Origin: Polyangiales bacterium
Lineage (GTDB): Bacteria > Myxococcota_A > Polyangia > Polyangiales > Ga0077539
Direction: 5' to 3'
Assembly: GCA_044229975.1 (NCBI GenBank)
Contig: JBGARZ010000012.1
Coordinates: forward strand, 1-64,000
Length of the DNA: 64,000 nt
Part shown: positions 10,899 through 11,985 of the stretch, in pieces
Layout of the letters: each line of letters starts with the position of its first letter
Numbering within the stretch: position 1 is the first letter of the stretch
Made by a program: the position numbers and the translations under genes
Notes under the pieces: generated by a model
What the model saw: the letters and a program-made list of their open reading frames with translations, nothing else
The model's database searches: none
What the model was told of the DNA's origin: nothing

Positions 10899-11577
10899 CT
10901 ACCCGATCACCTCGTAGGCCCCGTCGAGGTAGTCGCGCAGTCGAAACCGCTGCCCCGACGCGTGGTGCGTCACGACGTCGTCCTGCGTGCGGACGGTCCA
11001 TCGTTTGTCGCCGCGCTCGCCGCTCCCGAGCTGCTCCCGCCGGGCCGCGCCGCGGGCCTGGTGGTCGGCCTCGACGCGTGCCTCCCACAGCCGCGCGCGC
11101 AACATCGCCAGGGCGTTGGCCTTGTTCTGTTGCTGCGAGCGCTCACTTTCGCAGTGCACCACCACGCCCGTCGGCCGGTGCGTGAGGTCGACGGCGGAGT
11201 CGGTCTTGTTGCGGTTCTGTCCGCCCGCGCCGCTGCCGCGGCTGAAGGCCCAATGGAGGTCACCGGGCGCGATGGTGAGCTGCGTCGCCGTGGGCTCGGG
11301 CAACACCGCCACCGTCACCGTGCTCGTGTGCACCCTGCCCCGCTTCTCGCTCGGCGGAACCCTCTGCCAACGATGCCCGCCTGCCTCGTGCGCGAAGGCG
11401 TCGTGCGCCCACTCCCCGGTCACCCGCAGGACGACGCGACCGTCCCGGCTGTCGGCGATCTCGACGCTAAAGACACTTCCGCTGCGTCCTCTTCACATAG
11501 ACGGCGACCTGTTCAGAGACCAACAGACGGGCCTCGGCCCCGCCCTCCGCCGCGCGCACCTCGACGATGACTCCCAT
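10899..11577 (-). CDS. Short RF1-like peptide chain release factor (~225 aa) needing a +1 frameshift at CTT-TAG (11472-11467)
   Basis: ORF1 MGVIVEVRAAEGGAEARLL...RKCL* has an AAGGAG RBS. The +1 frame continues SVEIADSRDGRVVLRVTG...HEAGGHRWQRVPPSEKRGRVHTS...SRGSGAGGQNRNKTDSAV...ERSQQQNK...GERGDKRWT. Confidence 0.9.
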
Positions 11578-11661
11578 GACGAGAACGTCTCCTTCTCCAT
11601 TGAACAACCAAGACACCAATCCGACAAACCGGCGGCCGCAAGGACGCTCCGGTGCATGGGG

Positions 11662-11732
11662 AGGGAACGAAGGGAATCGAACCCCTGTCGAGCGGGACAC
11701 AACCGCTCGCTTTGCCACTAAGCTACGTTCCC
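11662..11732 (-). tRNA. tRNA-His(GTG)-like, atypical
   Basis: GGGAACG/CGTTCCC acceptor stem, GCTT/AAGC D stem, AGCGG-TTGTGTC-CCGCT anticodon arm, GGTTCGATTCC T arm. No genomic G-1; T at positions 73 and 37. Confidence 0.8.
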
Positions 11733-11784
11733 GAAGACCGCCGCGGCGCCCTACGAAACAAGGGCACTTCGCCTCGACGGGCGG

Positions 11785-11868
11785 TGCGGATGGAGGGACT
11801 CGAACCCCCGAAGGCTTGTGGCCCCTGGGTTTACAGCCCAGGCCTTTTGCCGCTCAGGTCACATCCGC
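11785..11868 (-). tRNA. tRNA-Tyr(GTA)
   Basis: GCGGATG/CATCCGC acceptor stem, A73, CTGGG-CTGTAAA-CCCAG anticodon arm, long variable arm, GGTTCGAGTCC. CCA not encoded. Confidence 0.88.
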
Positions 11869-11908
11869 GTTGTCAGCCAATGCCAATCGGGCCGCCAGCC
11901 CGAGGCGA

Positions 11909-11944
11909 CTAATAACGATGCGGATGATGGAGGCAGGCACACAT
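11909..11944 (-). CDS. Putative leader peptide MCACLHHPHRY*
   Basis: ATG TGT GCC TGC CTC CAT CAT CCG CAT CGT TAT TAG, a few nt after the predicted transcription start, followed by hairpin GTCGCC-TCGGGCT-GGCGGC. No SD. Confidence 0.45.
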   Translation of the reverse strand: MCACLHHPHRY

Positions 11945-11956
11945 GGCGACGGACCG

Positions 11957-11985
11957 TGTCTACTCCACTCAATGATGTCTGTAAA
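11957..11985 (-). promoter_or_regulatory. Putative sigma-70 promoter for the tRNA/release factor unit
   Basis: TTTACA-17 bp-TAGACA in an AT-richer patch upstream of the tRNAs. Confidence 0.55.

Follow-up and report, generated by a model that had tools for sequence, protein, structure and literature searches.

A candidate spare-parts cassette for translation in a Polyangiales bacterium: a leader peptide, spare tRNAs and a frameshift-gated RF1-like release factor

The 64,000-nucleotide stretch of Polyangiales DNA analyzed here ("the window") carries a cassette in which a short His/Tyr leader reading frame precedes tRNA-Tyr, tRNA-His and the gene of an RF1-like release factor. The leader probably acts as a codon- and stop-sensing switch. 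We also favor, with somewhat more reserve, the view that the cassette holds "spare parts": a ribosome slowed on the His and Tyr codons of the leader would switch on the tRNAs and the factor through a change in RNA folding. The cassette is a real, conserved variant of leader-peptide sensing that is apparently undescribed.

Table 1. Features of the cassette, in window coordinates.
Feature	Position	Strand	Remarks
Candidate sigma-70-type promoter TTTACA-N17-TAGACA	11957..11985	-	TTTACA 11985-11980, TAGACA 11962-11957, 12 nt before leader start
Leader ORF, 11 codons (3 His, 1 Tyr, 2 Cys), UAG stop	11909..11944	-	ATG 11944, TAG to 11909; translation putative, from sequence
Anti-tRNA segment in leader codons His-Pro-His	11920..11926	-	identity to tRNA-Tyr 3' acceptor strand
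Conserved 40-nt spacer, top of leader hairpin, no U-run	11869..11908	-	core kept in 6/6 homologues
Spare tRNA-Tyr(GTA)	11783..11868	-	tRNA call
Spare atypical tRNA-His(GTG)	11660..11732	-	tRNA call
RF1-like release factor gene, two frames	10899..11577	-	RF1 alignment, Pfam PCRF + RF-1
prfB-type +1 frameshift gate: GGAAG, 3 nt, CTT TAG C, after codon 36	11466..11480	-	CTT TAG C 11472-11466
Large inverted repeat, 63-nt arms, 94%	10715..10893	.	dispersed genomic repeat

A sequence check recovered every element of the initial annotation in its place on the minus strand (Table 1), including both tRNA genes and the UAG-gated release factor. Two elements stood only in part. The hexamers of the promoter are present and are similar in three same-genus homologues, but the candidate rests on its position and conservation because a consensus scan called no site (0 sites). 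The hairpin overlapping the leader is also present, but its stability is no better than that of shuffled sequences (z = +1.10). The host genome (G000) is 10 Mb in size and about 71% GC, and ordinary prfA, prfB, tRNA-Tyr (C32:374) and tRNA-His (C32:52751) genes lie elsewhere in it, so that every part of the cassette is a spare. The canonical prfA, at C4:116374, is on the window's own contig, and in the same-genus genome G004 the cassette lies at most 8 kb from prfA. One assembled contig from an RNA library of a relative spans the leader, tRNA-Tyr and tRNA-His, which is not proof of a single transcript; three sequencing runs were sampled, a small share of each and as contigs only.

The same synteny was sought in relatives, as had been proposed, and was found in a paralogue on contig C34 of the same genome, in the same-genus genomes G004 and G005, and in two distant homologues, the metagenome contig L192 and the 191-kb phage L428. 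In all six cassettes the leader has 11 codons, contains His codons and ends in TAT followed by a stop. The leaders of L192 and L428 gain Cys codons, and in both a tRNA-Cys joins Tyr and His downstream (the tRNA-His gene of L428 was identified by eye). In the C34 paralogue tRNA-His has been deleted and the His codons of the leader are retained. The U-ending codons were correctly described as rare: in long ORFs CAT makes up 9.1% of His codons and TAT accounts for 8.5% of Tyr codons, a rarity exaggerated by the filtering of those ORFs for GC3 above 0.85. On a 7.9-kb contig of G005 (C498; L332), a Glu-Glu-Arg-Asp cassette and a Tyr-His-release factor cassette stand face to face across unrelated genes.

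The expectation that leader codons would covary with the identities of the downstream tRNAs was borne out in the six homologues, in other tRNA clusters of G000 and at release factor-linked loci elsewhere. In G000, an Asp/Arg/Glu-rich leader precedes Glu-Glu-Arg-Asp tRNAs (in two copies), an Asn/Lys/Arg-rich leader precedes Asn-Lys-Arg, a Gly-rich leader precedes Gly-Gly, and a Ser/Cys-rich leader precedes four Ser tRNAs. A rule-based call gave 15 leaders, false calls included, among the 52 tRNA clusters of G000, leaving 37 without one. The cognate codon fraction of these 15 was 0.249 versus 0.128 when permuted (p = 4e-5), and the match held for the 13 leaders left after removal of paralogue duplicates (p = 1.5e-4). 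The rule missed the Ser-rich leader of G000 and called none for the Trp-Phe-Gln-Gln cluster, and the leader before three Leu tRNAs is weak (14% Leu). In other lineages, a Ser-rich leader stands before Ser(GCT) and the factor gene (L061), a Ser-rich leader before two Ser tRNAs and the factor gene (L210), and a Lys-rich leader before three Lys tRNAs and the factor gene (L229). For the 17 release factor-linked loci outside the G000 lineage (Ser, Lys and Leu), which include two duplicate pairs, the match gave p = 0.003, and for the 11 non-viral ones p = 0.008. Both leader-calling rules are not fully blind, because they were written after the upstream sequences had been seen. Among the matches listed, 150 of 178, the small tRNA clusters of G401, G402 and G004 looked housekeeping-like or resembled long arrays, with no clear leaders.

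Several other clusters deserve mention in their own right. The Trp-Phe-Gln-Gln cluster (C16:42020-42700 of G000) is preceded by a promoter-like region and by a frame containing Trp and Gln codons, which falls short of a clean leader ORF and may be what is left of a broken one. Between the Ser/Cys-rich leader and its four Ser tRNAs, at C32:448900-448975, there is a degenerate tRNA-like element whose loop reads GCA (Cys). Long tRNA arrays occur in G401 (L307, 57 called genes) and, at the family level, in G025 and G029 (L333 and L334, 18 and 15 called genes), and an identical short ORF rich in Asn, Glu, Asp and Arg lies upstream of both of the latter.

The release factor gene is read in two frames. 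A +1 shift at CTT TAG C gives a protein of 225 amino acids with an unbroken alignment to RF1 residues 112-338 (E 1e-45), in which domain 1 is absent and the GGQ motif, invariant in the factor family, is intact. Profile scores of 187 bits to RF1 (cut-off 423) and 67 bits to PrfH (TIGR03072, cut-off 167) place the factor nearer RF1 than RF2 or PrfH, yet under every equivalog cut-off. Identity as a full-length RF1 was rejected on that score, on an alignment that starts only at about RF1 residue 112 and on the presence of a true prfA elsewhere; identity as PrfH was rejected on its score and on the lack of an RtcB neighbor, RtcB not being among the proteins flanking the factor gene. A model of the C-terminal 189 residues matched ribosome-bound RF1 in a structure search (TMq 0.83); a single-sequence structure model of the factor was unusable (pLDDT 45). 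The recognition loop of RF1-type factors is PxT; it reads PPS in the window factor and PPT or PPN in most of the family. The nearest titled relatives are myxobacteria, and some carriers are in culture, with records under the names Minicystis rosea, Archangium gephyra and Pyxidicoccus fallax. The family also occurs in large phages, and a GenBank phage search gave one probable, unannotated member.

Homologous loci were scored for the frameshift gate after three duplicates were dropped. The 242 loci comprise 82 genome, 80 viral and 80 metagenome loci; some viral and metagenome rows still overlap, and the metagenome loci, taken among the matches listed, did not include the closest relatives. The gate is present in 218, absent in 15, and nine loci are truncated. 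The gate stop is UGA in 143, UAG in 64 and UAA in 11, and an SD-like purine run precedes 174 of 214 gates. Purine run, spacer, conserved CUU-stop-C and a full protein restored by the shift are all found, so that by its sequence the element has the marks of a prfB-type programmed +1 frameshift. On the genome-locus tree the gate stop has switched 19 times or more. The recognition motifs PPT and PPN occur alike with UGA and UAG gates, and no convincing specificity residue tied to the gate stop was found in the recognition loop or the helix-5 tip; the column that best tracks the gate stop lies after the GGQ domain and probably reflects lineage. Autoregulation, in which the gate stop would be the stop read by the product, is therefore best called putative.

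A gate of this kind is known from prfB, which encodes RF2 and is autoregulated by a +1 frameshift, and the likeness extends to the purine run, the 3-nt spacing and the early CTT-stop-C. The differences are that the cassette gene encodes an extra, RF1-like factor without domain 1, and that its gate may be UAG, UGA or UAA. In the accessible text of the 12,000-genome survey of Prince et al. (PMC12421855), neither a TAG among 8,164 prfB motifs nor a programmed shift in prfA is reported. The present gene widens the range of prfB-type frameshifting to include UAG and a gene of RF1-like type. The factor also recalls PrfH (RFH), a short class-1 rescue factor of sporadic distribution that lacks the N-terminal domain and for which a role under attack on translation has been proposed; these features the cassette factor shares, proposed role included. 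It differs in being far nearer RF1 (187 versus 67 bits), in having no adjacent RtcB and in being frameshift-gated, and the word frameshift is not used in the accessible text of Burroughs and Aravind (PMC6514570).

The initial annotation held that the last codons of the leader, its stop among them, call for the downstream products, and the stop codon does covary with the gate stop of the factor in genome loci. The window has UAG in both places (leader stop and gate stop), and the 90%-identical C34 paralogue has UGA in both. Under a strict rule leader and gate have the same stop in 26 of 30 scorable genome loci (p = 1e-4), and under a looser rule in 34 of 35 (p = 5e-9), the latter drawn from 76 genome loci with enough upstream DNA, the other 41 being ambiguous, uncalled or TAA. 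Independent pairs on the protein tree gave six changes in the same direction, none opposite and one unchanged under the looser rule (p = 0.03), and 4/0/1 under the strict rule (p = 0.125). The base after the leader stop is C in 31 of 39. The match is absent outside genome loci, both in metagenome loci (10 of 21, p = 0.61, among the matches listed) and in phages (16 of 27, p = 0.55), and it fails in three tRNA-bearing cassettes, L192, L210 and L229. Some leaders (among L061, L072, L085, L088, L098 and L034) end in CTT and a stop, the same hexamer as in the frameshift gate. A narrower part of the earlier proposal, that Tyr and UAG are linked through a shared codon box, did not hold, since the ending is UAU-UGA in five of the six homologous leaders, and UAG, UGA and UAA replace one another freely at the gate.

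How might such a leader act on the genes behind it? Its seven-base anti-tRNA segment (Table 1) is identical to the 3' acceptor strand of tRNA-Tyr (11792-11786) and complementary to the 5' strand (11868-11862). In folding predictions, nucleotides 1-7 of the tRNA pair upstream in the free window RNA (p = 0.99); with the leader masked, as a ribosome would cover it, they form the acceptor stem instead (p = 0.99-1.0). Because the leader copies the one strand and is predicted to sequester the other, a stalled ribosome would likely free the tRNA to fold. Predicted upstream pairing reaches 0.75-1.0 in all five Tyr cassettes, versus 9 of 48 other tRNAs that pair upstream. The masked, "ON" fold is predicted clearly only in the window and L192 (0.02-0.28 in C34, G004 and G005), and of 11 other cassettes folded three switch clearly, two partly and six not. 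Leader-tRNA complementarity is achieved by three different sequences, in the window group, L192 and L428. Duplexes of leaders with their own tRNA partners are the best, only 4 of 720 permutations being as good, with G004 weak and the relatives not independent. Shuffles of codon order reach the observed pairing in 10 of 100 cases for the window and 63 of 100 for G004, and structure-pair counts on a 5-row alignment were not significant. At 33 loci with the factor alone, predicted exposure of the ribosome-binding site rose from 0.37 to 0.46 on masking (p = 0.002); the masking was uncontrolled and the result is not counted.

From these elements a sequence of events can be proposed. During normal decoding the ribosome would clear the leader fast, and the bare leader would fold into a long hairpin that captures the 5' strand of tRNA-Tyr; the precursor would then stay unmatured and be degraded or Rho-terminated. 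Slow decoding of His or Tyr codons, or slow termination at the leader stop, would leave a ribosome covering the anti-tRNA segment, so that tRNA-Tyr could fold and the downstream tRNA-His and release-factor message would survive. The factor would stand behind a second gate and be made only if the ribosome fails to terminate at the CUU-stop-C of the factor gene and shifts by +1, so that one and the same stop would be tested twice, in the leader and at the gate. The trigger would likely be the loss of specific tRNAs or of release-factor activity, as by nucleases, toxins, phage or termination inhibitors.

The same sensing by a ribosome could have a transcriptional output only, the stalled ribosome blocking Rho-dependent termination or breaking a pause hairpin and the pairing with tRNA-Tyr being incidental. 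Rho is present in G000, leaders whose stop matches the gate are also found ahead of chromosomal factor genes without any tRNA, and in several cassettes the first tRNA is not sequestered. Such a reading leaves as coincidence that the leader copies seven nucleotides of the tRNA's own 3' acceptor strand and that three different leader/tRNA sequence pairs remain complementary. The leader region also lacks a U-run terminator: the sense strand has no run of four or more T from 11960 to 11578, between the promoter and the factor start, for which reason a classical intrinsic terminator (hairpin plus U-run) after the leader was rejected, and the only terminator-scan match, a weak one, lies after tRNA-His at 11634. 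We consider a purely transcriptional output rather unlikely, and regard Rho-dependent termination as the main rival of the folding switch, or as its partner.

A less probable origin for the cassette is as a domesticated fragment of a large-phage tRNA array, its leader matches inherited from phage and the whole now decaying or constitutive. Large phages do carry the factor family and a homologous leader-Tyr-His-Cys block; one of 120 leader-pattern matches in viral contigs was a true homologue. A DNA search of 401 order-level genomes gave the exact cassette in three (G000, G004 and G005), the remaining matches being tRNA arms, and a leader-pattern search of 401 phylum-level genomes gave a match in G000 only. 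Decay might also be read from the tRNA-His missing in the paralogue, and from the window tRNA-His, which lacks standard identity bases. The canonical bacterial tRNA-His identity pair is G-1:C73, and the window gene has neither, with C at -1, U73 and, in addition, U at 37. These features recur in G004 and G005 (U73), and the L192 and housekeeping copies are canonical; the atypical tRNA may not be charged with His, and its function as tRNA-His is doubtful. Two Thg1-like genes of G000 (C14:127613 and C36:402492) are relevant to a tRNA-His without G-1. Against a phage remnant, leader and gate stops have changed together repeatedly in bacterial chromosomes, including between the G000 paralogues, the reading frames are intact, and the flanking genes checked show no phage context, their products being TPR proteins or unassigned.

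A role specific to the loss of queuosine-family tRNAs, as under attack by colicin E5-type nucleases, coupled to UAG through the Tyr codon box, had also been suggested and now appears improbable. The Tyr and His tRNAs are both GUN, two tgt genes are present in the genome, and the window pairs UAG with UAG. Five of six leaders end in UGA, as noted, and Cys joins Tyr and His in two homologues. Asn and Asp tRNAs of other cassettes stand alongside non-queuosine tRNAs, and the sister cassettes include tRNAs for Glu, Arg, Lys, Leu, Ser, Gly, Trp, Phe and Gln. The anticodon loop of the window tRNA-Tyr, moreover, is that of its housekeeping counterpart. Finally, that translation uses instead the GTG-started, Ile/Val-rich frame that the window does contain, or that the leaders are generic antibiotic sensors without codon specificity, is hardly credible, since that frame lacks a start codon in the five homologues other than the window, the His/Tyr frame being the conserved one, and since leader content tracks tRNA identity.

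The spare tRNAs as a group bear on what the cassettes might replace. Each of the 26 cassette tRNAs has an anticodon that a housekeeping tRNA also has, and in 19 of them the anticodon loop differs. Phage tRNAs with altered anticodon loops evade anticodon nucleases (PMC10264068, as far as its accessible text goes), and the 19 of 26 that differ in loop from the housekeeping isoacceptor resemble them; the cassettes differ in being chromosomal and leader-gated, and the window tRNA-Tyr has an unaltered loop. The two full-scoring tgt (queuine tRNA-ribosyltransferase) genes of G000 are at C21:28293-29360 and C38:393619-394707, the C21 copy lying about 3 kb from a group made up of an HNH gene, an ABC-F-like ATPase and, at 32540, atypical tRNA-like genes. 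At C2:10385-12360 (L349), a TROVE/Ro60 gene lies behind an unusual tRNA-Arg(GCG)-like gene, whose product is possibly a Y-RNA-like RNA.

Leader-peptide attenuators such as hisL, trpL, pheL and ilvL control amino-acid operons and pheST. The cassette resembles them in having a short leader ORF, conserved and enriched in codons cognate to the downstream function, that lies over a putatively switchable RNA structure and is multivalent for amino acids. It differs in its presumed targets, tRNA genes and a release factor rather than enzymes, in having no U-run terminator, in its predicted competitor, which is the acceptor strand of the first tRNA, and in a stop codon that would be part of the test. 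The trn operon of Anabaena, a single long stress-induced tRNA operon controlled by the repressor TrcR, is alike as a spare tRNA set kept beside a full housekeeping set for translational stress; here there are small separate cassettes, each with a matching leader, and the words leader, attenuation and release factor are absent from the accessible text of the Anabaena paper (PMC8421152). A full-text literature search, which covered few subscription journals, turned up no account of the factor family or of leaders with cognate codons ahead of tRNA genes; genes of this kind could appear in the tables of PMC6514570 and PMC12421855.

New at this locus, then, are a panel on bacterial chromosomes, the covariation of leader stop with gate stop and the pairing of leader with acceptor strand. 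Together they suggest that bacteria can sense when a single decoding step fails and make good precisely the tRNA or the termination activity that is lacking. They offer an explanation, open to test, for the odd spare tRNAs found in many bacteria, and the leaders would show which tRNAs and stops are attacked in the organisms that carry them. Most tentatively, and somewhat less probably than the switch at the single locus, the cassettes may form a genome-wide self-test panel. Each mini-gene would probe certain codons or a stop codon, and a ribosome stalled there would serve as an RNA chaperone on which the folding of the adjacent spare tRNA depends; a minimal RF1-like factor, which might read all three stops, would meet the same stop at both of its gates. 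If this is true, ribosome-controlled maturation of tRNA would be a regulatory output for which no description was found in the literature.

The large palindrome had been taken to close the operon; a role as its terminator must be given up: the palindrome is a dispersed repeat and not a conserved part of the cassette. It matches 81 loci in G000, 29 of them over at least 100 nt. There is no match around the C34 paralogue or the G005 locus, and the G004 locus has only a 34-nt match elsewhere within it. Rfam miRNA matches to the palindrome fell below the cut-off and were rejected. It appears instead to be a member of a MITE-like repeat family, inserted here between convergent genes.
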